Positions 1,004-16,447 of a stretch of 64,000 nt of DNA are shown here, one piece after another; the first letter of the stretch is position 1; every line of letters begins with the position of its first letter. The DNA lies in assembly GCA_963743565.1 (NCBI GenBank), contig CAVUQD010000002.1, forward strand, positions 113,604 through 177,603, given 5' to 3'. Below the pieces are notes generated by a model. That model saw only the letters and a list, made by a program, of their open reading frames with translations. It did no database searches and was not told the origin of the DNA. The translations under genes and the position numbers were made by a program. The stretch is from an uncultured Alphaproteobacteria bacterium (GTDB taxonomy: Bacteria > Pseudomonadota > Alphaproteobacteria > Rhizobiales > Beijerinckiaceae).

Positions 1004-2377
1004 ATGATGTATTCGATCGACCTGCAAGGAACCCGTTACCGGTTCGACGACCTGAAGTCGCTGATGGCGAAGGCGACGCCGCTGCGTTCCGGCGACTGCC
1101 TCGCGGGCGTCGCCTCTGAGAGCGCCGTCGAGCGCGTTGCGGCGCAGATGCGCCTCGCCGATCTTCCGCTCTCGACCTTCCTCGCCGAGCCGCTCATCCC
1201 CTATGAGGACGACGAGGTGACGCGGCTCATTTTCGACACGCATGACAAGCGCGCCTTCGCGCCGATCGCCAGCCTCACCGTCGGAGAGTTCCGCGACTGG
1301 CTGCTCTCCGATTCCGCCACGCGCGAAACGCTCGCTGCCCTCGCGAAGGGGATCACGCCGGAGATGGCGGCCGCGGTTGCGAAGATTTCGCGCAACCAGG
1401 ACCTCATCGCGATTGCTTCAAAAATCCGCGTCGTCACGCGCTTTCGTAACTCGATCGGTCTGCCCGGCACGCTCTCCTCGCGCATTCAGCCCAATCATCC
1501 AACCGACGATCCCAAGGGCGTGCTCGCCAGCATCATCGACGGGCTGCTGCTCGGCGCCGGCGACGCGGTGATCGGAATCAATCCCGCATCCGACAGCCCG
1601 CGACGCTGCGAAGAATTGCTGCTGCTCATCGATGAATTGCGTGAAACCCTGGAGATCCCTACGCAGTCTTGCGTGCTCGCCCATGTCACGACCACGCTGC
1701 CGCTCATCGCGAAAGGCGCGCCCGTCGATCTCGTCTTTCAGTCGATCGCCGGGACCGAAGCCGCGAACCGCAGCTTTGGGGTGGACCTCGCACTGCTGCG
1801 CGAAGCGGACGACGCGGCGCACAATCTGCGACGCGGAACCGTCGGTAATAACGTCATGTATTTCGAAACGGGCCAGGGCAGCGCGCTTTCGGCGGAGGCG
1901 CATCATGGCTGCGATCAGCAGACGCTCGAGGCGCGCGCCTATGCAGTGGCCCGCGCCTTCGATCCGCTGCTCGTCAACACGGTCGTCGGCTTCATCGGAC
2001 CGGAATATCTCTTCGACGGCAAGCAGATCATACGCGCCGGGCTCGAGGATCACTTCTGCGGCAAGCTGATGGGCCTGCCCATGGGGTGCGACGCCTGCTA
2101 CACGAATCACGCCGAAGCCGATCAGAACGACATCGACGATCTTCTCACGCTCCTGGCGGTTGCCGGCGTGAATTATGTGATGGGCGTTCCGGGCGCCGAC
2201 GACGTCATGCTGAATTATCAGAGCACGTCCTATCACGATGTCGCGGCCGTTCGAAAAATTCTTAATCTCTCGCCTGCTCCGGAATTCGCGGAATGGCTTG
2301 CGCGGATGCGCGGCGGCGATCTCACGCAGGCGCAAGCGTTGCCCTCGTCCTTCCAGCGTCTCTTGGCGAAAGTTTGA
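1004..2377 (+). CDS. eutB: Ethanolamine ammonia-lyase large subunit
   Basis: 457 aa; motifs RSGDxLAGVA, QPNHPTDD, MYFETGQGSALS, GLEDHFCGKLMGLPMG. Confidence 0.97.
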   Translation: MMYSIDLQGTRYRFDDLKSLMAKATPLRSGDCLAGVASESAVERVAAQMRLADLPLSTFLAEPLIPYEDDEVTRLIFDTHDKRAFAPIASLTVGEFRDWLLSDSATRETLAALAKGITPEMAAAVAKISRNQDLIAIASKIRVVTRFRNSIGLPGTLSSRIQPNHPTDDPKGVLASIIDGLLLGAGDAVIGINPASDSPRRCEELLLLIDELRETLEIPTQSCVLAHVTTTLPLIAKGAPVDLVFQSIAGTEAANRSFGVDLALLREADDAAHNLRRGTVGNNVMYFETGQGSALSAEAHHGCDQQTLEARAYAVARAFDPLLVNTVVGFIGPEYLFDGKQIIRAGLEDHFCGKLMGLPMGCDACYTNHAEADQNDIDDLLTLLAVAGVNYVMGVPGADDVMLNYQSTSYHDVAAVRKILNLSPAPEFAEWLARMRGGDLTQAQALPSSFQRLLAKV

Positions 2378-2380
2378 AGC

Positions 2381-3151
2381 ATGGCGGAGAAACTGCCGGC
2401 GATTGACGGTTTGGCGGCGCTGAAAGCCTCGACTCCGGCGCGCATCTTTCTGCCGTGCGCGGGCGCGGCGGTCGCGACGGGGGCCAATCTCGCCTTCCAG
2501 CTGGCGCACGCGCAGGCGCGCGACTCGGTCGAGGATCATCTCGACACACAAGCCCTCATGAAAGAACTGCACCAGCGCGGGTGGGAATCCGTGTGCGTCG
2601 AGAGCGCGGCGCCGAACCGGCGCGCCTATCTGATGCGGCCCGATCTCGGACGGCGCCTCGACGATCCCTCGCGCGCGCGTCTCTCAACGCTCGCGGGCGA
2701 TGGCGATATCCTCTTCGTCGTCGCGGACGGCCTGTCCGCACGAGCCGTCACAGCGCATGCGCTACCGCTGCTCGATGCGGCGCTGCCTGCCTTTGGCGCC
2801 GAAGGCTGGAAGATCGGCCCCGTCATCGTCGTTTCTCAGGGCCGCGTGGCGATTGGCGACGAGATTGGCGAGGTCTTGGGCGCAAAGCTCGTCGCCGTTC
2901 TCATTGGAGAGCGGCCCGGTCTCTCCTCGCCCGATAGTCTCGGGGCGTATCTCACTTTCTCCCCGCGCATCGGCCGCACGGACGCCGAGCGCAATTGCCT
3001 GTCGAATATTCGCAGAGAGGGAATGTCCTACGCGGAGGCGGCGGCGCGGTTGCTTTATCTCGCCACCGAAGCGCGTCGGAGGAATTTATCCGGCGTAGAA
3101 CTGAAGGACGAGTTCCAAAGTGCGGCGTCCGCTCGCCTTGTCGCGGGCTGA
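2381..3151 (+). CDS. eutC: Ethanolamine ammonia-lyase small subunit
   Basis: 256 aa; STPARI, AHAQARD, RxAYLMRPDLGRRL, IGERPGLSSPDSLG, DAERNCLSNI; follows eutB. Confidence 0.96.
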   Translation: MAEKLPAIDGLAALKASTPARIFLPCAGAAVATGANLAFQLAHAQARDSVEDHLDTQALMKELHQRGWESVCVESAAPNRRAYLMRPDLGRRLDDPSRARLSTLAGDGDILFVVADGLSARAVTAHALPLLDAALPAFGAEGWKIGPVIVVSQGRVAIGDEIGEVLGAKLVAVLIGERPGLSSPDSLGAYLTFSPRIGRTDAERNCLSNIRREGMSYAEAAARLLYLATEARRRNLSGVELKDEFQSAASARLVAG

Positions 3152-3410: not shown

Positions 3411-4310
3411 TCACCCCTGAACTCGGGCGCAGCGAAAGCCAATATGATTGATGCGTTCGCGCGGAGCGCTCGCGGTCCGGCCGGCCGAGCGGACGCCCGA
3501 CGCGTAGTCGGCCCAGGAACCCCCGCGCAAGACGCGCCCTCCAGCCCCATCGTTCAGCCAGACGGAGCCGTCTGCCGGGGCGCCGACATAGTCAGGGTGA
3601 TCGGGATCTTCGACCCATTCCCAGACGTTTCCAAGCATGTCCTGAAGGCCCCAGGGATTCGCCCGCTTGCGCTTCACGCGCCGAGTTCCCGCGCTTTGAT
3701 GCGCGTATTGCTTTCCGGACCAAGACGAGCTGTCCCAGAGCGCCCCGAGATCGTAATCCCTGCCACTGTTGCCTCCGTACCAAGCGATCGGGTCGAGGAT
3801 CGGCGCGTTGTTCAGTCCCAGAATCTCCAGATCGCCCGCGTATGTCGCCGCCGTAGTCCCGGCCCGGCAGGCGTATTCCCATTGCGCCTCGCTCGGCAGG
3901 GAGAGGCCGAGACCGGGAACGAGCGCGTTCACCTTGCTGATAAACGCTTGCGCGTCGTCCCACGAAACTCTTTCGACCGGGCGATCAGGGCTTTGAAAAT
4001 CGCTTGGATTGTTCCCCATCACCGCGCTCCAGAGTGCTTGCGTGCATGGGGTCTCGAACATCCAGAACCCTCGCGCGATCGTCACCTCATGCTGCGGGCC
4101 TTCGTTCTTGGCCCGCCCCGCCTCCGACTCTGGCGATCCCATTAGGAAGTTGCCCGGCGGAATCCAGCGTAAGAGCTGATTGGCGTCCTGAACCGCGAAG
4201 CCAAGAAACAGGCCGTGACTATCCTGCCCCCATTCGCTGGCCCAATCGGGCGGAGCACCCTCGATCAGCCGCCGCCGCTCACTAAGAAGGTCGACCGCAA
4301 GTGCTCTCAT
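3411..4310 (-). CDS. Stand-alone FGE-sulfatase (SUMF1-like, C-type lectin fold) domain protein; DGR-target-like
   Basis: RWIPPGNFLMGSP, LPSEAQWEYACRAG, NPWGLQDMLGNVWEW, RVLRGGSW...IGFRCAR; ATG at 4310 preferred over the longer ORF start at 4385. Confidence 0.9.
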   Translation of the reverse strand: MRALAVDLLSERRRLIEGAPPDWASEWGQDSHGLFLGFAVQDANQLLRWIPPGNFLMGSPESEAGRAKNEGPQHEVTIARGFWMFETPCTQALWSAVMGNNPSDFQSPDRPVERVSWDDAQAFISKVNALVPGLGLSLPSEAQWEYACRAGTTAATYAGDLEILGLNNAPILDPIAWYGGNSGRDYDLGALWDSSSWSGKQYAHQSAGTRRVKRKRANPWGLQDMLGNVWEWVEDPDHPDYVGAPADGSVWLNDGAGGRVLRGGSWADYASGVRSAGRTASAPRERINHIGFRCARVQG

Positions 4311-4659
4311 CCTTGTGTGCCCCGAATGCTGACGTGAAAAAGCGCGCCGGCGAGCCTTGGAGGAGGCTTCGCCCGTTTCTAGCACGCCGACGGCCCTTCG
4401 TTTTCGCCATTCGGAACATCGAGAACTCGTCTTGGGGGAAAATCTCTCCGTAGGCGATCTTGCCGCAGTTTATCGACGCCGGCCGGCTTTCTGCGTTCTG
4501 TTCCAGATAAGTGACGCAGAGCGCCCAGAAGCTCGTCTGCCCGTCCTGAACGAAATTCTTCTCGACCGAGACGATCTTGTGGCTGGTCAAGAGCTGGTTC
4601 AACGTCGCGCTGGCCTCGTCGTCGCCTCGACAAGAGCAGGCGAAGACTTTCACGCGCAT
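4282..4659 (-). pseudogene. Truncated N-terminal half of the HRDC-domain accessory protein typical of DGR cassettes
   Basis: ATG 4659 with GGAGG RBS. MRVKVF...HKIVSVEKNFVQDGQTSFWALCVTYLE...KIAYGEIFPQDEFSMF resembles recalled DGR-associated HRDC proteins; similarity stops near 4410, before the HRDC domain. Confidence 0.6.
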
Positions 4660-4766
4660 CCTCCTGCCTCCTCTCGCGCTCTCGCGTGGTCGGCCCCGCC
4701 AGCGACCCACCGACGCAGGCGGTCGGCTCGCTCCGCTCGAACTCGCCGCGTCCCTCCCGGCTCCCC

Positions 4767-7700
4767 TCACTCCTGAACTCGGGCGCAGCGAAAGCCGATA
4801 ATGTCGGCGCGCACGTCCGGAGCGTACGCGCTCCGGTGCGCGGAGCGGACGTTCCGCGCGTCGAGGCCCCAGGAACCGCCGCGCAAGACGCGCAAAGCAG
4901 CCATAGCTGCTTGCGATGCTCCAGCCTCTACATCCGATCTGCTCCCCAAGCGAAGCAACTGTTTTGCCGCGTCGAGCAATCCCGCGCGCCGGACGGAGCC
5001 GCGCCAAGGCCTGCCGTCGCTGGGCGCCGCCTCATAGTCGCCGTGCCAATCGTCCGCGCACCATTCCCAGACATTTCCGTGCATTTCGTAAAGACCCCAG
5101 AGGTTAGGCGGCAGGCTCGCCACGGGAGCCGTCTCCTTGCGATAAAGCACTTTGGTCGCGTCGTCGTAAGGGTAGTTGCCATCGTAATTGACGAGCTCGG
5201 GCGTAATGTTCTCGCCGAAGCTGAACGGCGTCGTCGTCCCCGCCCGGCAGGCGTATTCCCACTGCGCCTCGCTGGGCAAAGAAAGACCGAGATCGGGAAT
5301 GAGCGCATTGATCTTGTCCAGGAACTGCTGCGCGTCGTCCCATGAGACTTGCTCGACGGGGCGGTCGGGGGCCTGAAACCGACTCGGATTTGTGCCCATC
5401 ACGGCCGTCCACAAGGCCTGAGAACAGGCCGTGTCGAAGAGCCAGAAGCCCTGTGCGATCGTGATCTCGTGCCGGGGACCCTCCGAAGTCAAACGCCCCC
5501 GCTCGGTCTCCGGCGAGCCCATCAGGAACCGCCCGGGATTGATCCAGCGCAGCTTCTGGCGCACGGGGTCTGCTGCGCCCGGCGCCTCGATCCCGGCCCA
5601 CAGGCCGAAGCGATCGCGCCCTATCGCTGACGCCCATTTCGGGCGCGCCAGGGGCTCGACCGTCAGGCGCTCACAGTCGCTGCGAATGACGAAGGACCCG
5701 GCGCGCGGAAAAATCGCGGCGCCCTCGCCGCCGACGAATAGCCGCGCGCGCTCGCCGCCGCCGGACGGCGCCGCTGCGGTCGGCCTCGCTCCGCTCCGCT
5801 GAACTCGCCGCGTCTCCGCCGGCTCCGCGCCGTCCTGAACTCGGGCGCAGCGAAAGCCGACATACTGGTTTTCCTCCTGCCGCTTGTATTGATACCGGGA
5901 CGCCGCACGGACGGCGTGCGCGCTGCTCTCCCAAGAACCGCCGCGCACGACACGCCCGACAGCCTTATTTGCGTCATCCCAAACTGAACCGTCGTTCGGC
6001 GCGCCTCGGTAGCCCCGATGCCAAGCGTCGGCGCACCACTCCCAAACATTGCCGTGCATCTCGTAGAGGCCCCAGGCATTGGCTGGAAGACTTCCGACAG
6101 GGACACGCCGCTGACGCCAACGTCCCTTAAACTCTTGATACTGAAAATCATCACCGAAGTAATTCACCTGATCCACAGTGACGGTCTCGCCAAAGCTGAA
6201 CGGTGTCGTCGTCCCAGCCCGGCAGGCGTATTCCCACTGAGCCTCGCTCGGGAGGGTGAGGCTGAGCCCGGGAATGAGGGCGTTGATCTTGTCGATGAAC
6301 TCCTGTGCGTGGTCCAAAGAGACGCGGACAACAGGCTCGGCGGCGGCGCCTGACCATCGCCACTCCCTCATCACCGCCTCCCAAAGGACGTTAGGGCATA
6401 CCGTGTCAAACAGCCAGAAACCCCTTGAGATGTTTACTTTGTGCCGTGGACCTTCGTTGGCGTCCCGCCCCTTCTCGTTGTTCGGCGACCCCATCATGAA
6501 CGTGCCCGGCGGGATCCACCGCAAGCGCTGCTTCACAAAGCCGTCCCGGCCTTCGATAGCGAATTCAAACCAGGGTCCAATCTTGTCGCAGCCGAAATCG
6601 CTGACGAAGGGAGGGACGGCGCCGTCCTTCCAGAAAGGCGGCGAATCGAGCGCGAAATCATCTTCGCGCGCCGTGATCCCGCAGACGAGGCTGCCATGAG
6701 ACAGGGCTTCGCTCGCGAAGGCGCGCAGCCGACCGCCCAGCTGACGGATCATGAAGCGTCGCGGCGGACGATCCGATGACGTCACTCGGGTCGCCACATA
6801 ACCCGGCGGCGCGGCGGGGTCGTCTCCGCGCGCCGAGCGCCAGAGCGACATGAAGGCGCGGCGCTCGGCGGCCTCGTCTGGCGTCCAGTCTTCCCAGCGC
6901 TCCAGCGGCAAACGGTGCGTCAAGCCCCAGAACCAGCCCATCTCGCCCGCCGACGCCTTCTCGGCCTCCGCAGCTTCCGCCAGCGCGAGGAAGTCCTCAG
7001 CAAGGCTCCGGCGGACGCGCGCGGGAACCAGAACCCGCGAGGATGCTGGGAGACTGCGGCATTCCTCCGCAAACACCCAGCGCATCCCGTCGCGCCAGGA
7101 ATGGCGCGGGGGATGGAAACGCCATCGATAGATCAGCTTCAGGACATCACGACGTTCCTCTGGAGCGAGCGTGGCGAACTCCTTGAGCAGCGCCTCGCGC
7201 GCGGCGACGTCGGGCGTCGCGCCGATCGGATGGCGTCGCGCCACCGCGGCGTCCTGCCAAAATAGCCCTTCGAGCCCCGGGTCGGCCCTTCCGCCAAGCA
7301 GCCAACGCAGCCCGCGGAGCAGCCCGGGCTCGATGCTGAGCGCGGGCGAGGCCAGGACCTGCAGCTGCCGCAGCCTCTTCTCGCGCTCCTCCAGCGTTAT
7401 CGGCTCGCCAATCCGGCGCCAGCCGATGAGGGACCACACCCTTGAGAGCTGCGCCACGGCGCGCAAGGGCGCCGCGGGCAGCACGGCGACCCCGCGCCCG
7501 CCGACGCGGCGCAAGCGCTCGCCATACTCGGCCCAGGCCCGCAACTCTTCGCCCTCCGGCTCTGAGAGCAGTCCGAGATCACTGAAAACGACGACGGTCG
7601 CGCCCGAGGGCGGCGGCGCCTGGTCGCGCCAATCGACGGGGATCACCCCGCCCTGCGGAAACAGCCGTTTCAGATCGTGATAGAGCGCCAGATAATCCTC

Positions 7701-8249: not shown

Positions 8250-9205
8250 GCTTCTTCAGCACGAATTCACGCACGGTCTTGAGCGCGTCCCGCTGCGCCG
8301 TCGGCTCGCCCTCATGCTGATGCGCCACGACGCGCAGCAAATCGAGATATTCGGCTTGACCGGGGCGCGGGCGCAGGTCTCCATGCGCAGTTCGATCCTC
8401 GAACACCATTTCCGCAGCGAGGCTTAGCGTTTCCCCGTCGCAGTTCGGGAAATGCGCCTTTCCACGCTGCACGAGCAAATCCATCAGTCTTGCCCTGTCG
8501 TCTGGCAGCGTCAGCGCCAGCACCAGGCAGCGGCGCAGAAAGGCGTCCGGCAGCGTACAGTTCTTCGTTTGTGGTGATCACGACGAGCGGCGCGGGTTCT
8601 TTCGCGTTGACGACGCCGCAGCCCGGCGGCGCGATCCGGCCAGAGCCGAGCGCCTCAAGGAGTCCGTTGGGGACCTCCGCCTCCGCCTTGTCGATCTCGT
8701 CGATCAGGACGACGGAACCGTTGTCGGGATCGGCTTCCGCGCCACGCTCCGGGACATCCGTGCGGACGCGCGCGCGCGCGCTCGCCGCCGCTTGACGCTC
8801 CGCGCTGGGCCAGTCGAAGCCCCACCACAGCGGCCCGGGAACGACGAATTTTTCGATCGCGAAATCGGCGCGCGCGTCCTCGACCGATTTGTCGCGCAGC
8901 GCGCCGGCGAGTTGCGCCTCGGCGAGACGCCCTAGGGAATCGAGCCGCCAAAGGAGATCACGCGACTCGGTTTGGCTGTCGACCACTTGCTGAATGAACG
9001 TTCGCTTCAGCATCTTGGCCGCGGCGCGCGCCAACTGGCTCTTCCCGATCCCCGGTTCCCCGCGAACGAGCAGCGGCCGGCCCGCGGCTAAGGCCGCATT
9101 CAGCGCGCGCACCTCGCGCTCGTCGAAGAGATGCACCTGATCGGCGATGGCGCCATGCGGCTCGAGATCGGCACGAAGCCCTGGAGTGTAACTAATGAAC
9201 TTCAT
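8239..9205 (-). pseudogene. MoxR-family AAA+ ATPase with a +1 frameshift near 8559
   Basis: Walker A GEPGIGKS, Walker B VLIDEIDKA. Deleting one base at 8559 restores ITTNEERTLPDAFLRRCLVL and joins the 8312-9205 and 8239-8523 ORFs. A sequencing error cannot be excluded. Confidence 0.85.
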
Positions 9206-10590
9206 TTGGTGAGTTCACCGTCGTGAAGCATGTCAAGAACCGCCCACAGCACATTCAATTCGTTTTTTGCTGCATCGCGTCCGTCGTCGAGCGAGAAAAA
9301 GGCGATTTCCGGATAGGCGGCCTTCGCCTTGTCGATCGCGGCGTCGACGTCGCGCTTGTATTCTTCGTACCAGAAAACGTTCCTATTCATGCGTTGTCCA
9401 ATCGCGATTTCCCACTCCGGCGCATTGACGACGAAATAGTAGCGAGTCTTCTTTGTCCTCAGATTTTTCTGCAGACGCTCGCGCGCGCGTTTCCGTCTTT
9501 CCTCCGGCGCCAGAACTTCCTCGCCGAGCAACAGCAGCTTGGAAAAAACAAATTCGTCCAGCAGTTCCGTGAAGCGATCGAAAGTGGCTGGACCGCAGGC
9601 TGGCGGAAGTTGATAGGCGAACTCGCCATGCGGGCGCTGCGGCCTTACTGCGCCGCCGCCCAGCCGAGCGAAAGCGGGCGAACGTCCGAGCAGCCGAGCT
9701 TCCACTAGCTCCGCACCGGTCACGCTCTGCGCCGGAATCGGCACGACGACGGCCGCGCCGTCGCGCGCTTGTTCACGAATCTCCTCTATTTCCTCAGGCT
9801 CGTAAATCAGCAGGACGAATTCTCGAGTCGCGAGCTTGACCGCCCGCGCCCCAGCTGCATCATCGAGAACCGGACCTGACAATTCCGTATGGGCCTCAGC
9901 GAGCTTTTCGAGAGCCGTTTCCACATCCAGGCTCGCCAGCTCGTCGAAGACGACTCCACTACGGCGGCGAAGATCCGGTTCTGCGGAGGGCTTACTGAGC
10001 AGCTTCTCGATTTGGCCGACTGCCGCCGGCCATTTTGCGAGCGCCGCCGCGAAACGCTCCCGGATCGCGGCTTTCTCTTTCTCCGCCTTCTGCGCCGCCA
10101 GCGCCCGCTTCGCCGCGTCGTCTTCCGACGTTTGCGAGGGCAACTCCCGCGTCTGCTCAAGGCCGTAGAGGCGCCGGTAGCGCTCCTCAATCAGCCCGGC
10201 GATTTCCACGGCCTTGCGATTCGTGACGAGAGGAAAAACGTCCTGCTCACGGCCCTCGGGAACCTGCGTCATGTCGAAGCGAAATGGCAAGACTTGCTCG
10301 GATTGCTGCAGGAATAAGCGTTCGCGGATCACGCGTGCCTCGACGCGGGTCCAATTCTTCTCAAGATAGACCTTGGAGAAAAAGGGTACAACAAGTTCCG
10401 CCATGGAGTAGATATTCTGCAGCTTCAAATCAGAGTTGTAGCCGATCACCTCACCTTCGTGCCAGTTGTCATAAAAAATGCGCTCCTTATCGAAGCTCGC
10501 CAGCAAGGCCTCCGCGACCTTCTCGACATACGCACGATTCTCGCCTGCGAAAGAGAGGGCGACTGCGAAACGACGAGGCGTCAGCGTCAT
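9202..10590 (-). CDS. TIR-domain protein with an uncharacterised helical C-terminal region
   Basis: FAVALSFAGENRAYVEKVAEAL...IFYD...YLEKNWTRVEAR is a bacterial TIR (TIR_2) signature; ATG 10590; ATGA overlap with moxR. Confidence 0.85.
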   Translation of the reverse strand: MTLTPRRFAVALSFAGENRAYVEKVAEALLASFDKERIFYDNWHEGEVIGYNSDLKLQNIYSMAELVVPFFSKVYLEKNWTRVEARVIRERLFLQQSEQVLPFRFDMTQVPEGREQDVFPLVTNRKAVEIAGLIEERYRRLYGLEQTRELPSQTSEDDAAKRALAAQKAEKEKAAIRERFAAALAKWPAAVGQIEKLLSKPSAEPDLRRRSGVVFDELASLDVETALEKLAEAHTELSGPVLDDAAGARAVKLATREFVLLIYEPEEIEEIREQARDGAAVVVPIPAQSVTGAELVEARLLGRSPAFARLGGGAVRPQRPHGEFAYQLPPACGPATFDRFTELLDEFVFSKLLLLGEEVLAPEERRKRARERLQKNLRTKKTRYYFVVNAPEWEIAIGQRMNRNVFWYEEYKRDVDAAIDKAKAAYPEIAFFSLDDGRDAAKNELNVLWAVLDMLHDGELTK

Positions 10591-10949
10591 TAGCACGCCC
10601 CCACCGGCCCTGCCGCCGCCTTGAATCCCTCCCGTCGACGCTCGGTGACGGCGGCGATCTTGCCGCTGAACTGCCCGCGGCCAGGGGCCTTCAAAAGAAA
10701 GAAGCTCTTCATCCAGCATTACCGACAATGGCATCTGGCGTCTACATAGCATGGCGTCGGGACTAATGCATTCCCGCGCGGTGCGCGGACAGCACGGCCT
10801 TTTTCCGGCCTGTCCGGGGCCGCCGGCAACGCCATCGGATAGCCGATCTTCGCGGGCGTCAGGTTCAGCGATCTGCACGGCCAAAAGGACATTGCGATCG
10901 GCGGCTTGTAAGGCTTGGCTCCATGTGTCGTCGACTGTTTAGCTCCCAG

Positions 10950-10992
10950 TTGACAGGCGGCCTCGAATCAGGCTGTAATGTATCCACTAAAC
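10950..10992 (+). promoter_or_regulatory. Sigma70-type promoter of the XRE gene overlapping a degenerate operator
   Basis: TTGACA (10950-10955), 18-nt spacer, TGTAAT (10974-10979); GTAATGTATCCACTAAAC matches 13/18 of the palindrome at 14794. Confidence 0.55.
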
Positions 10993-11011
10993 AAGAAACA
11001 AGGGAGAGGAC

Positions 11012-11359
11012 ATGGGAGACGAAAAGTTTGGTGCATTCGTGCGCCAGAGACGGGAGGAAAAGAAGATCGGCTTGCGGGAGATGGCGAAAAAGATCGGGGT
11101 GAGCCCGACCTACCTCTCGAAGGTCGAGCGCGACGAGTTCACGCCGCCAACGGAGGACAAGGTCTGCGCGATTGCGCAAATCATCGAGTGCGACCCGGAT
11201 GAATTGCTGGCGATGGCCGGGCGCGTGCCATCCGATCTCGCGGAAATCATCAAGCGCCGTCCGGTCGAGCTGGCGGCGCTCTTACGCACCACCAAGGGCC
11301 TGTCTGCGGATGACATCACGCGGCTCGCGCGACAGGCAGAGAAGGCAAAAGCCCGGTAA
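11012..11359 (+). CDS. XRE-family HTH transcriptional regulator
   Basis: FGAFVRQRREEKKIGLREMAKKIGVSPTYLSKVER; RBS GGAGAGG. Confidence 0.92.
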   Translation: MGDEKFGAFVRQRREEKKIGLREMAKKIGVSPTYLSKVERDEFTPPTEDKVCAIAQIIECDPDELLAMAGRVPSDLAEIIKRRPVELAALLRTTKGLSADDITRLARQAEKAKAR

Positions 11360-11406
11360 CCTCGTAACCCAGGCACATAGATGCAGATGAAAGGATCAAG
11401 ACGTAG

Positions 11407-11658
11407 ATGTCGAGAAAAATTCCTTACGTGACGGAGGAGCAGATCGAGCGCGACGCCGCCGCGCTTCTCGCCGAATACGAGCAGACTAGCGGTGTGAGGA
11501 TCCTCAGGGCCGTGCCGATCGAGGACATCGTCGAAAAGCATATCAAGCTCGGCCTGGAGTTCGATGACATGCATCGGTTGTTGAACTGTCCCCGCTCGGG
11601 GCCCGGTCGAGATCCCGACATTCTCGGCGCGATCTTCTTCGACGAGAAGCGCATCGTA
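11407..11658 (+). pseudogene. ImmA/IrrE-family metallopeptidase, 5' fragment truncated by IS21
   Basis: EEQIERDAAALL...VPIEDIVE...ILGAIFFDEKRIV lies directly after the XRE gene; the frame is cut at the IS end before any HExxH motif. Confidence 0.7.
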
Positions 11659-11761
11659 TGTTGATTTCCATTGAGAGCTGACCCGGGCAGCAGGGGTTTT
11701 TCCACCGAGAACTGACCCATGTTCGAACCCTTCCCCCACGGGCATCGCGGGGGAGCATGGA

Positions 11762-13300
11762 GTGATCGACATGGAGTTATTGAGCGTCATCCGACGCTGG
11801 CGACATCGGCAACATCTCTCGATCCGGGAGATCGCGCGACGAACGGGGCTGTCGCGGAACACGGTACGCAAGTATCTGCGCTCGGACAGCGTTGAGCCGA
11901 AGTTCAACATCCCTGACCGCCCGAGCAAGCTGGATCCCTACGCTGACAAGCTGGCGCAGATGTTGCGGTTGGAGGCGGCGAAGTCGCGCAAGCAGAAGCG
12001 GACGGTCAAGCAGTTGCACGCCGATTTGGTCGCCCTCGGCTACGACGGCTCCTACAATCGCGTGGCGGCCTTCGCGCGCGAGTGGAAGGCGGCGCGGCAT
12101 CGGGAGCAACAGACCTGTGGCCGCGGCGCTTTCGTGCCGCTGGCGTTTCTGCCCGGCGAGGCGTTCCAGTTCGACTGGTCGGAGGACTGGGCGGTCATCG
12201 CGGGCGAGCGGATCAAACTGCAGGTCGCCCAGTTCAAGCTCTCCTACAGTCGCGCGTTCATCCTGCGGGCTTACCCGCAGCAGACGCATGAGATGCTGTT
12301 TGACGCCCACAACCACGCCTTCCGCGTGCTGGGCGGCGTGCCGCGGCGCGGGATCTACGACAACATGCGCACCGCCGTCGACAAGGTCGGGCGCGGCAAG
12401 GAGCGGCAAGTCAACGCGCGTTTCGCGGCCATGGTCAGCCACTTCCTGTTCGAGGCCGAGTTCTGCAACCCAGCCTCTGGCTGGGAGAAAGGGCAGATCG
12501 AGAAGAACGTGCAGGACGCGCGGCACAGGCTCTGGCAGCCGACGCCGAACTTTCCTTCCCTGGCGGCGCTGAACGACTGGCTGGAGACGCGATGCCGGGA
12601 GCTATGGGCCGAGATTCCGCATGGCGCGCAGGCGGGCACGGTCGCCGACGCCTGGAGCGAGGAAGCGCAACACTTGATGCAGCTTCCCCGCCCCTTCGAC
12701 GGCTTCGTCGAACACACCAAGCGCGTCTCGCCGACATGTCTCATCCACCTGGAGCGCAATCGCTACAGCGTCCCGGCCTCGTTCGCCAATCGCCCCGTCA
12801 GCGTGCGGGTCTATCCTGAACGCATCGTCGTGGCCGCCGAGGGGCAGGTTGTCTGCGAGCATCGGCGCGTCTTCGCCCGCTCCCACGATCGCAAGAGCGC
12901 GACGATCTACGACTGGCGCCACTATCTCGCGGTCATCCAGCGCAAACCCGGCGCCTTGCGCAACGGCGCGCCCTTCGCCGAACTGCCGCCCGCCTTCCGG
13001 GCCTTGCAACAGCGCATACTCAAGACGCCAGGCGGCGACCGCGAGATGGTCGAGATCCTCGCCCTGGTCCTCCAGCACGACGAGCAGGCCGTGCTCGCCG
13101 CCGTCGAACTGGCGTTGGAGGCGGGCGCGCCGACCAAGACGCATATCCTGAACGTGCTGCACCGGCTGGTCGATGGAAAACCGATCGACGCGCCGCCAGT
13201 GAAGCCGCCCAGCGCGCTGACGCTCACCACCGAACCGCAGGCCAATGTCGAGCGCTATGACGCCCTGCGCAAAGCCCGGGAGGCGCGCCATGCGTCATAA
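11762..13300 (+). CDS. istA: IS21 transposase IstA
   Basis: N-terminal [27 protein letters not shown] (DDE triad). Confidence 0.95.
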
Positions 13301-14084
13301 TCCCGCCGCCGGCGCCATCGTCATCATGCTGCGCAGCCTCAAAATGCACGGCATGGCGCAAGCCGTCGGCGAACTCACCGAGCAAGGCGCTCCGGCCTTC
13401 GAGGCCGCGCTGCCGATCTTGTCGCAGCTTCTGAAGGCGGAAACAGCCGATCGGGAAGTCAGATCCACCGCCTACCAGCTCAAGGCCGCGCGCTTTCCAA
13501 ACTATCGCGATCTCGCCGGCTTCGACTTCGCCAGCAGCGAGGTCAATGAAGCTCTCGTTCGCCAGCTTCACCGCTGCGAGTTCCTGGAGGATGCCCATAA
13601 CGTTGTCTTGGTCGGCGGCCCCGGAACGGGCAAGACGCATCTCGCCACGGCGATCGGCGTCCAGGCCATCGAGCATCACCGCAAGCGCGTCCGGTTCTTC
13701 TCCACCGTCGAACTCGTCAACGCGCTCGAGCAGGAAAAGCTTCAAGGAAAAGCCGGGCAGATTGCGGCGCGGCTCACACACGCCGATCTCGTCATCCTCG
13801 ACGAGCTCGGCTATCTGCCGTTCAGCGCCTCCGGCGGCGCCTTGCTCTTCCACCTGCTGAGCAAGCTCTACGAACGCACCAGCGTCATCATCACGACCAA
13901 CCTCGGCTTCGGCGAATGGGCCGCCGTGTTCGGCGACGCGAAAATGACGACGGCGCTCCTCGACCGCCTCACCCACCGCTGCCACATCCTCGAGACCGGA
14001 AACGACAGCTTCCGCTTCAAGGACAGCTCGGCGAAAGCCGCTAAACCCACAAAGGAGAAAACCCGCAACTTGACGAACGCCTGA
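13290..14084 (+). CDS. istB: IS21 helper ATPase IstB
   Basis: [32 protein letters not shown]; ATG 13290 overlaps the istA end. Confidence 0.95.
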
Positions 14085-14155
14085 CCCTCAAACCATCATC
14101 AACCCGGGTCAGTTCTCAATGGAAATCCCGGGTCAAATCTCGGCGGAAATCGACA

Positions 14156-14767
14156 GGCTGCCAGCTTTTCCGAGTGCGCCTGTTGGGAGAGGGCCTATCA
14201 ACAGAACAGCTTGCTGCAAACCCGATACTCGAACTGGGAGCACCACCGAGAGACAAAGCACGCGCTGGCCGAATGAATGTGGAGTTCATTCCAATTCTAT
14301 ACGCCACGTTCAGCGAACAAACCGCGATTGCTGAAGGCCGCCCTAGCCTAGATGACGAGATCGCAATAGCTACCTTCACAACACTTTACGATCTCAAAGT
14401 TTTTGATTTTACTGTATTTTCTGCAGCGCTTGGCAAAAACTTTGAGGCCGCCATCGAACACACGCGCTATGATTTTATCGAACAGTTGGAACAGGAAATT
14501 AGCAAGCCTGTTCGAGCCTCGGATAAAGTCCGCCAATATATTCCGACTCAAATCGTTGCTGAGTACATACGAGAGCGATTCAACTGTGACGGGATTATAT
14601 ATAGATCATCAATGATCAAAGACCGCTCACTCGACGCGAGGAATATTGCGTTGTTCGACAAGCGCCGACCTTTTCTCGGTGGCACAGAAGCCTCTCTCAG
14701 CTTCGTCAATTACGTTATCAAGGAGGTCTGGGACGTCAAATACGTGGTCGGCAAGTCGCCCTTTTAA
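14156..14767 (+). pseudogene. RES-domain (NAD+-targeting toxin family) protein, 5'-truncated by IS21
   Basis: Frame is open right up to the IS end (GCQLFRVRL); RMNVEFIPILYAT..TAIAEGRP, PTQIVAEYIR..DGIIYRSS are RES motifs; AT-rich. Confidence 0.75.
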
Positions 14768-14779
14768 GCGGGAGAGCCA

Positions 14780-14811
14780 TTGCGATCGACGACGTTTAGT
14801 ATATACTAAAC
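14780..14811 (+). promoter_or_regulatory. Recombinase promoter with a perfect 18-bp palindromic operator
   Basis: TTGCGA (14780-14785), 16 nt, TATACT (14802-14807); palindrome GTTTAGTATATACTAAAC at 14794-14811; ATG 7 nt after the -10 element. Confidence 0.65.
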
Positions 14812-14813
14812 AC

Positions 14814-16406
14814 ATGAAGACATCCGTCAAGCAAGGCCGCGCCGTTGATCTCGCCCGTAAACAGGCGGTGGTCTATGCCCGCGTCTCCTCCAAGGAGCAG
14901 GAGAAGGAAGGCTTCTCAATCCCGGCGCAGTTGAAGTTGCTGAAGGAATACGCCACCGCAAACGGCTTCGTGGTCGCCGAGGAATATGTGGACGTGGAGA
15001 CCGCCAAGCAGACGGGCCGCGCCGCCTTCGGCGAGATGGTGGTCTATCTCAAGGCGCATCCCTCAGTCCGCGTGATGCTGGTCGAGAAGACAGACCGGCT
15101 TTACCGAAACCTCAAGGATTGGGTGACGATCGACGAACTCGATGTGGAGATCCACTTCCCCAAGGAAGGCGTGGTGCTCTCGCGCAATTCGCGCTCCTCG
15201 GAAAAGTTCATGCACGGCATCAAGGTGCTGATGGCGAAGAACTACATCGACAATCTGTCCGAGGAAGCCCGCAAAGGCATGCAGGAAAAGGCCGAGCAAG
15301 GCATCTGGCCCACCAAGACGCCGCTCGGCTATCGCAACGTCACGGGATCGGACGGCAAGAAGGTCATCGAAGCCGACCCGGAGGTCGCCCCGCTCATCAC
15401 GAAGCTCTTCGAATGGTATGCGACCGGACAGCATTCGCTGCAGACCGCGGCGGCCAAAGCGCGAGCCGCCGGTCTCGCGCACCGAAGGAGCGGCACGCGG
15501 GTGCCCGTGAGCACGATTCACACGATCCTGCGCAACCGGCTTTACACGGGCTGGTTCGAGTGGAACGGCAAGCTCTATCGCGGAAAGCACGACGTCTTGG
15601 TCTCGGTCGAGCTTTGGGAGCGCGTGCAGGGCGTGCTGGATGGACGCCACGCCAGTAAAAACCGCCGCATGACGCACGACTTCGCCTTCTCGGGCCTGAT
15701 CGCCTGCGCAAAGTGCGGCTGCTCGGTGGTTGGGGAGATCAAGAAGCAGCAATACGTCTATTATCACTGCACGGGGTACGCCGATAAGTGCCGGGACGAG
15801 CCCGCTTCCTGTCGCCGCAAATATGTTCGCGAAGAGGTTTTGGAGCGGCAGTTCACGGAACTGCTTGGCCGGCTGCGCTTCGACGACGAGGTGCTCGAAT
15901 GGGTGCGCGAGGCGCTGCACGCCAGCCGCGCGGATGAGCGCAGAGAGCATGAGGACGCGATCAAGCGCCTGCGCGGGGAATACGACCGCCTGCAAGCTCG
16001 GATCGACGCGATGTATATCGACAAGCTGGACGGCAGGATCGGCGGCGACTTCTTCGACCGCATGGCAGGACAGTGGCGCGAGGAGCAGAGCCGCTGCCTG
16101 CGCGAGATCGAGCGCTGCCAGGAGGCCGAGCAGTCTTACATGGACGAGGGCGTGCGGCTTCTCGAACTCGCTCAAAACGCCCAAGCCCTGTTCGAACGTC
16201 AGCCGCCACGCGAAAAGCGGCGACTTCTCGATTTCGTGCTTTCGAACTGCTCATGGGAGGATGGCGAAGTGGTCGCCACCTTCCGCCAACCCTTTGATCT
16301 GTTAGCGCAAACGACGGCAGCAGCAGCGCGATGGGAGGCAACGGGAAGCGGAATTTCGATGAAAAGCGAGATTTGGCTGGGGGACCTGGATTCGAACCAA
16401 GATTAA
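14814..16406 (+). CDS. Large serine recombinase (resolvase + recombinase + zinc-ribbon domains)
   Basis: AVVYARVSSKEQ catalytic motif, EKTDRLYR, FSGLIACAKCG, YYHC; last codons overlap the tRNA-Gln 3' end. Confidence 0.95.
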   Translation: MKTSVKQGRAVDLARKQAVVYARVSSKEQEKEGFSIPAQLKLLKEYATANGFVVAEEYVDVETAKQTGRAAFGEMVVYLKAHPSVRVMLVEKTDRLYRNLKDWVTIDELDVEIHFPKEGVVLSRNSRSSEKFMHGIKVLMAKNYIDNLSEEARKGMQEKAEQGIWPTKTPLGYRNVTGSDGKKVIEADPEVAPLITKLFEWYATGQHSLQTAAAKARAAGLAHRRSGTRVPVSTIHTILRNRLYTGWFEWNGKLYRGKHDVLVSVELWERVQGVLDGRHASKNRRMTHDFAFSGLIACAKCGCSVVGEIKKQQYVYYHCTGYADKCRDEPASCRRKYVREEVLERQFTELLGRLRFDDEVLEWVREALHASRADERREHEDAIKRLRGEYDRLQARIDAMYIDKLDGRIGGDFFDRMAGQWREEQSRCLREIERCQEAEQSYMDEGVRLLELAQNAQALFERQPPREKRRLLDFVLSNCSWEDGEVVATFRQPFDLLAQTTAAAARWEATGSGISMKSEIWLGDLDSNQD

Positions 16407-16447
16407 CGGAGTCAGAGTCCGCTGTTCTACCGTTGAACTATCCCCCA
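16374..16447 (-). tRNA. tRNA-Gln (anticodon CTG)
   Basis: 74 nt; acceptor stem TGGGGGA/TCCCCCA, anticodon arm GCGGA CT CTG AC TCCGT, GGTTCGAATCC T-arm, encoded CCA. Confidence 0.97.

Follow-up and report, generated by a model that had tools for sequence, protein, structure and literature searches.

A probable relic of a diversity-generating retroelement attached to a MoxR-like ATPase/TIR locus in an uncultured Beijerinckiaceae bacterium

A locus probably deprived of its retroelement cassette

The stretch of DNA analysed here (the window) comprises 64,000 nt of the genome of an uncultured alphaproteobacterium of the family Beijerinckiaceae (assembly GCA_963743565.1, contig CAVUQD010000002.1, positions 113,604 to 177,603) and contains two neighbouring genes, designated P0001 and P0002, whose FGE-sulfatase domains resemble the targets of a diversity-generating retroelement (DGR). 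Within a genomic island, the locus formed by these genes very probably represents a decayed DGR that is linked to a conflict system of the MoxR-ATPase/TIR type and whose cassette, composed of an HRDC accessory gene, a reverse transcriptase (RT) gene and a template repeat (TR), was lost by deletion. The evidence consists of a 25-nt tail and a codon pattern common to several variable regions (VR), a gene order shared with intact DGRs, an HRDC stub that ends at a deletion junction, the absence of RT and TR from the genome, and an enrichment of VR differences at template adenines. From these data we infer that the direction of change was loss, as opposed to a cassette that was never acquired. The regions concerned are listed below, numbered from the first letter of the window.

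VR1: 3416..3536, minus strand; 96-nt body (3441-3536) and 25-nt tail (3416-3440)
VR2: 4772..4892, minus strand; body (4797-4892) and tail (4772-4796), at the C-terminus of P0002
VR3: 5834..5954, minus strand; intact tail (5834-5858) and body (5859-5954), in the internal FGE domain of P0002
P0001: 3411..4310, minus strand; short DGR target with an FGE/C-type lectin (CLec) domain only (Pfam FGE-sulfatase, E 1e-46)
P0002: 4767..8249, minus strand; long DGR target of 1160 aa, with an N-terminal extension of ~570 aa and two FGE/CLec domains

The 25-nt tail as a homing signal

The 25-mer GGCTTTCGCTGCGCCCGAGTTCAGG occurs in three exact copies in the window (3416-3440, 4772-4796 and 5834-5858), all on the minus (coding) strand; its chance expectation is 0 and shuffled sequences gave no match. 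A fourth exact copy is located on another contig of the same genome (C1:780087-780111), where it ends a remote variable region, VR4. Each of the four closes a Pfam FGE-sulfatase domain with the peptide GFRCARVQ and uses the codons TTT, CGA and GTT, which are in the minority in neighbouring genes (27%, 8% and 19%, respectively). An earlier note on this DNA had described an identical tail on three FGE domains and the presence in it of these non-preferred codons, and both observations were borne out, with an exact match at each of the three positions.

The closest named homolog of the short target protein was found in Rhodoblastus sphagnicola. In this species, the locus is composed of genes encoding a TIR-like protein, an AAA_5 ATPase, a 1148-aa protein with two FGE domains, an HRDC protein and an RVT_1 RT, followed by a 93-codon pseudo-open reading frame and a gene for a 300-aa FGE protein. 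The same order is found on the minus strand of the window for the TIR, MoxR-like ATPase, long target and short target genes. The Rhodoblastus pseudo-open reading frame, which has a weak FGE match, corresponds to the template repeat: it is AAC-rich, ends in GGCTTTCGCTGCGCCCGAGCTCACGG and has GGCTTTCGCTGCGCCCGAGCTCAC as its 3' end. The three Rhodoblastus VRs end in a 25-mer identical to that of the window, followed by a similar element of ~35 nt, and they match the TR at 92 of 92 non-adenine sites, the differences affecting 10-17 of the 23 adenine sites.

Other RT-bearing loci were recovered by DNA pattern scans. In these, TRs carry GAGCTCAC where VRs carry GAGTTCAG; TR-type copies are AAC-rich, have the tail CTCAC and adjoin an RT and an HRDC gene (L027, L029 and L050), and VR-type copies have the tail TTCAG. 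When TR and VR were compared in intact relatives, mismatches at non-adenine sites ranged from 0/92 to 1/95, with 9-17 of 20-23 adenine sites differing. Because this TR/VR tail rule holds across RT-bearing loci, the 25-mer is the initiation of mutagenic homing (IMH) sequence of a DGR clade, i.e. the 3' homing signal of the variable region, and ...GAGCTCAC is its TR counterpart, IMH*. The window domains have the properties of DGR targets, with a VR that ends a CLec/FGE-fold domain and an IMH that is shared with VRs of intact DGRs and differs from IMH*. The earlier proposal that the domains contain DGR variable regions with the 25-mer as IMH is supported by these relatives, which have the same gene order together with RT, HRDC and a TR ending in IMH*. 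At another locus (L092), an internal VR that seemed to have "escaped" was an artefact of an indel, which had shifted the alignment.

Conservation extends beyond the IMH, as seen at two places in the window.

Post-VR element after VR2: 4700..4771, minus strand; includes GGCGAGTTC and GAGCGGAGCGAGCC, and is 88% identical over 60 nt to the sequence that follows VR3
Post-VR element after VR3: 5765..5833, minus strand; kept in the coding linker between the two FGE domains

The internal VR of Rhodoblastus displays the same arrangement inside a coding linker. In an alignment of 14 VR flanks representing several genera, the GCGGAGCGA core of the element hardly varies; the box that contains it is located about 55-60 nt downstream of the IMH start. 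Part of this box is complementary to the GCGCCC of the IMH; a conserved hairpin after the IMH was nevertheless dropped, as RNAalifold predicts 8 pairs, of which 0 are supported by covariation.

Variable regions and their fit to a lost template

VRs were compared on a codon-aware alignment of the four FGE domains. In VR1, VR2 and VR4, 66 of the 96 bases preceding the 25-mer are invariant, and the 30 variable columns are distributed 12/11/7 over codon positions 1/2/3. The third-position difference per site between these three regions drops from 0.50 upstream of the VR to 0.16 in the 32-codon VR body, in which codon positions 1 and 2 differ at 0.28 each, and the tail shows 0 differences over 24 sites. 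In VR3, the third-position divergence of the body is no lower than in the remainder of the domain; what is conserved is only the 25-mer and about 35 nt beyond, and the transition is abrupt where the 25-mer begins. The scaffold codons with changes at positions 1 and 2 that had been proposed earlier are indeed shared by VR1 and VR2, but not by VR3, in which 21 of the 66 scaffold columns differ.

With the genome's own TR lost, the nearest one found was taken as a surrogate. It belongs to a metagenome contig (L085) with the order HRDC-RT-TR-short target, and was the closest of the 14 TRs recovered by a metagenome scan for the IMH* tail; a scan of metagenomes for the exact scaffold GTCCGCTCCGCGNNCCGGNNCGCGNNCGCTCCG found none, so that neither the own TR nor a perfect match was recovered. 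When compared to the TR deduced by placing an A at every variable column, the L085 TR is identical at 79 of 96 positions. Mismatches of each VR to this surrogate are as follows.

VR2: 13/21 adenine sites, 5/75 other sites (Fisher p 2.7e-7)
VR4: 13/21 adenine sites, 8/75 other sites (Fisher p 4.7e-6)
VR1: 14/21 adenine sites, 12/75 other sites (Fisher p 1.6e-5)
VR3: 11/21 adenine sites, 26/75 other sites (Fisher p 0.11, no adenine-site enrichment)

Overall, VR1, VR2 and VR4 mismatch the L085 TR at 62-67% of adenine sites and 7-16% of the others, and 17 of its 21 adenine sites are variable among them. Differences in these three VRs are concentrated at template adenines and at codon positions 1 and 2, a pattern that VR3 does not follow, and the three are consistent with a single lost template. 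An explanation of the VR differences as A-to-N changes from a template, as foreseen in the earlier note, is in this way provided by the real TR of a related locus, which accounts for most of the differences among VR1, VR2 and VR4. Its picture of three targets of one template, two of them in the same polypeptide, has to be amended: a polypeptide with two VRs is normal for the clade, but no TR or RT is present in the genome now, and VR3 did not prove to be a product of the template behind VR1 and VR2, given its non-adenine mismatch of 26/75 and its lack of adenine-site enrichment (p = 0.11).

Probable loss of the HRDC domain, reverse transcriptase and template repeat

The region between the two targets contains the following features.

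HRDC accessory-gene stub: 4282..4659, minus strand; residues 1-85 conserved (4659-4414), followed by an out-of-context tail
Deletion junction: 4409..4413, minus strand; ~1.47 kb missing (HRDC residues 86-165 and the complete RT and TR)

In DNA alignments, positions 4658-4414 correspond to nt 2-255 of the Rhodoblastus HRDC gene, and positions 4408-4201 match from 96 nt upstream of the Rhodoblastus short target onward. The same junction alignment was obtained with L085, a second intact locus. In both intact loci the sequences that align to the left and right flanks are 1.47 kb apart, and about 1.47 kb is therefore missing at 4409-4413; the spacing between the long and short targets in the window is only about 450 nt. 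The Rhodoblastus HRDC protein matches 4659-4330 by tblastn over residues 1-109 (53% identity, E 1e-28 to 5e-31). The Pfam HRDC domain, which corresponds to residues 82-148 of the intact protein, is deleted here and the stub has no Pfam match, so that an 85-residue N-terminal stub is all that is left of an accessory gene of either the Avd or the HRDC type.

The genome searched represents 4.25 Mb in 10 contigs and is 99.95% complete. It contains no PF00078 (RVT_1) match, with a control RT scoring 4e-12, and no tblastn match to the Rhodoblastus DGR RT (E<=0.01). A fuzzy search for the TR, which allowed up to 5 mismatches to the 25-mer, detected no additional copy, and blastn with the VRs as queries (word size 7) matched only the four VRs. 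Hence the non-coding copy of the 25-mer next to an RT gene that the earlier note proposed to look for was not found, the four VRs being the only copies in a genome without RT. Both of the remaining components of a complete DGR, namely an RT gene and a TR matching the VR at all non-adenine sites, are lacking in this genome. In the genus, RVT_1 matches mostly correspond to multi-copy genes of 400-490 aa resembling group II intron RTs. Among 18 genomes carrying a 19-mer, a related DGR RT was detected in 9 and none in the other 9; as these are mostly metagenome-assembled genomes (MAG), absence is weak evidence.

Comparison with a sister strain

An independent metagenome contig (L023) represents a strain 95-96% identical to that of the window. 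It is collinear across the junction and also devoid of RT and TR. Since the contiguous junction is shared by both, the deletion is real and predates the split of the strains. VR1 is identical in L023 apart from long-read-style errors, VR2 and VR3 differ between the two strains, and the 25-mer of VR3 has one substitution in L023.

The differences in VR2 and VR3 were considered as a sign of DGR activity and rejected, because the divergence spans 3800-6300 and includes the stub and non-VR sequence. Across this tract, which begins in the N-terminal half of the short target, takes in the HRDC stub and reaches the internal FGE domain, non-VR parts included, 10-38 substitutions per 100 nt were counted, against <6 elsewhere. 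Its ends are close to a conserved FGE block that occurs twice (3804-3992 and 6159-6347). Such a pattern suggests replacement by a diverged allele through homologous recombination at the sensor genes, and not templated mutagenesis.

Proposed history of the locus

In the ancestral state, the HRDC gene, the DGR RT and the TR would have separated the long target P0002 from the short target P0001. The TR RNA would have been copied with errors at adenines, and the resulting cDNA would have replaced the last ~100-120 nt of the FGE/CLec domains, homing being directed by the IMH together with the conserved element beyond it. Such homing would leave the same scaffold codons, NNC-type variable codons and the same tail in paralogs that differ at half of their third positions. 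Homology with the intact loci shows that error-prone copying of TR adenines and IMH-directed homing wrote the C-terminal ligand-binding face of these domains. The HRDC domain, RT and TR would then have been lost together in a single deletion of ~1.47 kb. Because the deletion took both RT and TR, VR1, VR2 and the remote VR4 would be frozen products of one lost template. VR3 would have drifted off the template before the deletion, keeping only its IMH and post-VR element.

Several points weigh against this history. The non-adenine mismatch counts rest on the surrogate L085 TR, the own TR being lost, and 13 columns that vary among VR1, VR2 and VR4 fall at non-adenine sites of the surrogate; these may result from drift or may have been adenine sites in the lost TR. 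The perfectly kept IMH of VR3 beside a diverged body is not fully explained, and the sensor and effector roles assigned to the proteins are putative. Finally, by analogy with two "degenerate" loci of Doré et al. (PMC10907252), a subpopulation of cells might still have an intact cassette, which appears unlikely here.

Alternative explanations

The alternative that survives best, albeit an improbable one, is that the VRs are still diversified in trans, by an RT and TR carried on an unassembled replicon or mobile element or by an intact locus present in a minority of cells. Thiohalocapsa PB-PSB1 offers documented examples of remote and degenerate loci diversified in trans and of structural variants with an intact RT at degenerate-looking loci (PMC10907252); here, each of the four copies has kept an intact IMH, and VR2 and VR3 differ between strains. 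Against this, a 99.95%-complete genome has neither a TR-like copy nor any kind of RT, the junction is common to the independent strain L023, and the divergence between strains is not VR-specific, extending over 3800-6300 with the stub while VR1 is unchanged. Moreover, VR1, VR2 and VR4 carry 5-12 non-adenine mismatches to the L085 TR, the nearest available, versus 0-1 in active systems; these mismatches may reflect the difference between surrogate and true TR, drift after the loss, or both.

Somewhat less probable still is a second, DGR-independent role for which the IMH and the post-VR element would have been kept, either as an anchor for recombination of sensor cassettes or as an RNA or DNA regulatory element. 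Such a role would account for the intact tail of VR3 beside its diverged body and for the abrupt transition where the 25-mer begins, and it would fit both the conservation of the post-VR box across genera, even within coding sequence, and the position of the strain-divergent tract, bounded near repeated conserved FGE blocks. However, no covariation points to a structure, too little time since the deletion would explain the retention equally well, with one substitution already present in the VR3 25-mer of L023, and the same elements flank actively diversified VRs in intact relatives, so that DGR function is sufficient to explain them.

That these genes are ordinary FGE paralogs which were never DGR targets here, with a tail due to gene conversion or to selection on the peptide GFRCARVQ, is hardly credible: GFRCAR is a conserved motif of the FGE family and a related FGE protein with a similar tail (3 mismatches; G025, see below) has no RT within 10 kb, but selection on the peptide does not fix eight synonymous sites in four copies while the domains differ at 50% of third positions, the exact string would arise from usage-drawn codons with a probability of about 2e-4 per copy, the variable columns are enriched at TR adenines, and both the HRDC stub and the gene order shared with intact DGRs demonstrate that this machinery once existed here.

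Relation to known systems

The decayed DGR described here is a member of a published locus type (Doré et al. 2024; Kaur et al. 2020) and involves no new mechanism. Doré et al. (PNAS, PMC10907252) described clade 5A DGR loci, such as DGR 8 of Thiohalocapsa PB-PSB1 and that of Thiorhodococcus drewsii, including tandem VRs, remote targets and degenerate loci without RT or TR, and found intact structural variants at two loci that look degenerate in the reference genome. As in clade 5A, a MoxR-like ATPase gene immediately precedes that of a long target whose N-terminal extension is undefined, the second target is a short protein with a CLec domain only, TIR/peptidase genes are adjacent and VR-bearing CLec domains occur in tandem; a T. 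drewsii protein is also among the homologs of P0002. Unlike in clade 5A, RT, TR and HRDC domain are absent genome-wide and not supplied by a sister locus, and the host is an alphaproteobacterium and not a purple sulfur bacterium. The assignment to clade 5A is one of architecture, not of RT phylogeny.

The R. sphagnicola locus (L020; GCA_014197735.1, JACIGC010000016.1:72568-89470) is similar in its gene order and in its three VRs, two of which are in one protein, and has an identical 25-nt IMH and post-VR element. It differs in having kept the HRDC gene (165 aa), the RT (339 aa) and the TR, and in adjoining a relaxase, whereas the window locus probably lies on a tRNA-Gln island. The window locus also resembles the MoxR-vWA (VMAP) ternary conflict systems of Kaur et al. 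(eLife, PMC7159879), a study that noted DGR-diversified FGE-type domains, in having genes for a MoxR-type AAA+ ATPase, a putative TIR effector and a large sensor-like protein in one operon; here, however, no VMAP domain was detected and the vWA match of the sensor-like protein is weak, below the Pfam cut-off. With respect to the DGR of Bordetella phage BPP-1 (Mtd/Brt/Avd), the reference for the IMH and the downstream target-recognition element (Guo et al. 2011, PMC3240598), common features are the position of the VR, which closes a CLec-fold gene at its 3' end, an IMH a few bases off IMH* and a required cis element after the IMH. The differences are an accessory gene of the HRDC type instead of Avd, targets that are cytoplasmic-type putative sensors and not a phage tail fibre, and the lack of a supported hairpin after the IMH.

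MoxR- and TIR-linked DGR targets, tandem VRs, remote targets and degenerate loci were already known. What the present locus provides is a clean natural case of DGR death, by one deletion with a base-level junction, in which the MoxR/TIR system and four sensor domains remain open reading frames. As a natural "RT knockout", it raises the question of whether DGR-diversified sensors stay useful with a fixed specificity, and of the rate at which VR scaffold, IMH and post-VR element erode after homing has ceased. There is a slim chance that the orphan sensors stay addressable and could be re-armed in trans by a same-clade DGR cassette arriving on an island or plasmid, because this genome, Rhodoblastus, several Acetobacteraceae and other alphaproteobacterial MAGs share an identical IMH and post-VR box in spite of belonging to different genera; if so, the relic would be a dormant receptor repertoire and not a dead one.

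Target genes and the MoxR/TIR operon

The start of P0001 is most likely the ATG at 4310 (299 aa) and not the GTG at 4385 proposed by the ORF finder. Its product and the Rhodoblastus short target located after the TR share 63.5% identity over 299 aa. P0002 contains two Pfam FGE-sulfatase domains (E 1e-81) and is 52.6% identical over its full length to the 1148-aa Rhodoblastus target; its N-terminal extension has a weak VWA_CoxE match (E 5e-4, 20 bits versus a cut-off of 26.4). Two further genes complete the operon.

MoxR-like AAA+ ATPase: 8312..9205, minus strand; Pfam AAA_5 E 2e-11, with a faint bpMoxR match
TIR-domain protein, 560 aa: 9202..10884, minus strand; Pfam TIR_2 E 7e-9

The ATPase gene, the MoxR component of the system, is directly upstream of P0002 at a distance of 63 nt, and its product is 60-71% identical to that of the AAA_5 gene at the equivalent position in Rhodoblastus. 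The TIR-domain protein is 32% identical over 484 aa to the product of the first gene of the Rhodoblastus locus; it brings an effector domain into the operon and is likely the putative effector of the locus. Only TIR_2 was matched by this 560-aa first gene product (Pfam, E<=0.01), with no VMAP domain, and PADLOC has no model for the proteins of the locus. The four operon proteins and the remote TIR-FGE protein that carries VR4 are all still encoded by open reading frames. Their function may now be one of fixed specificity, with putative sensors signalling through MoxR to TIR.

The remote gene (C1:780082-781491; locus L003:1496-2905, minus strand), which the earlier note had overlooked, encodes a 469-aa protein with TIR_2 and FGE domains, and an identical 25-mer and post-VR element close the gene. 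In PADLOC, the TIR domain of this protein shows a resemblance to ThsB. No HRDC or RT remnant was found near this gene on C1.

The locus probably sits on an integrated genomic island. A tRNA-Gln gene (CTG) is located at 16374-16447, at the far end of the region, and a Mu-transposase-C-like/HTH gene (11762-13300) and other small genes are found between it and the TIR gene (10865-16400). EutBC genes occupy 1004-3151 on the opposite flank of the locus; as EutB shares a 90%-identity cluster with a protein of a Roseiarcus sp. MAG, the host is probably Roseiarcus-like.

Related loci in other genomes

A scan of 60 related genomes for the 25-mer with <=3 mismatches detected only one real homolog, in G025, a genome of the same genus; a match in G015 looks like chance. 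The G025 gene (L007:7842-8972) encodes a protein with pentapeptide repeats and an FGE domain, its 3' end is 3 bases off the 25-mer, and a similar sequence follows the stop codon. It adjoins choline kinase and DAO/GCV_T genes, with no RT within about 8-10 kb, and may be another orphan target.

Another version of the locus without RT, in which the gene order is the same, was found in a 982-kb metagenome contig (L022; ENA ERZ28775471 NODE_13), with genes for a Metallophos/PNP_UDP protein, an AAA_5 ATPase, and FGE proteins of 1214 and 331 aa; about 95 nt separate the two targets, and toxin-antitoxin and phage genes are found around them. Finally, in an Acetobacteraceae MAG (G072:C190:3572-4587), the RT of the clade is matched in two pieces, residues 1-185 and 214-336, and this gene may be frameshifted or decaying.

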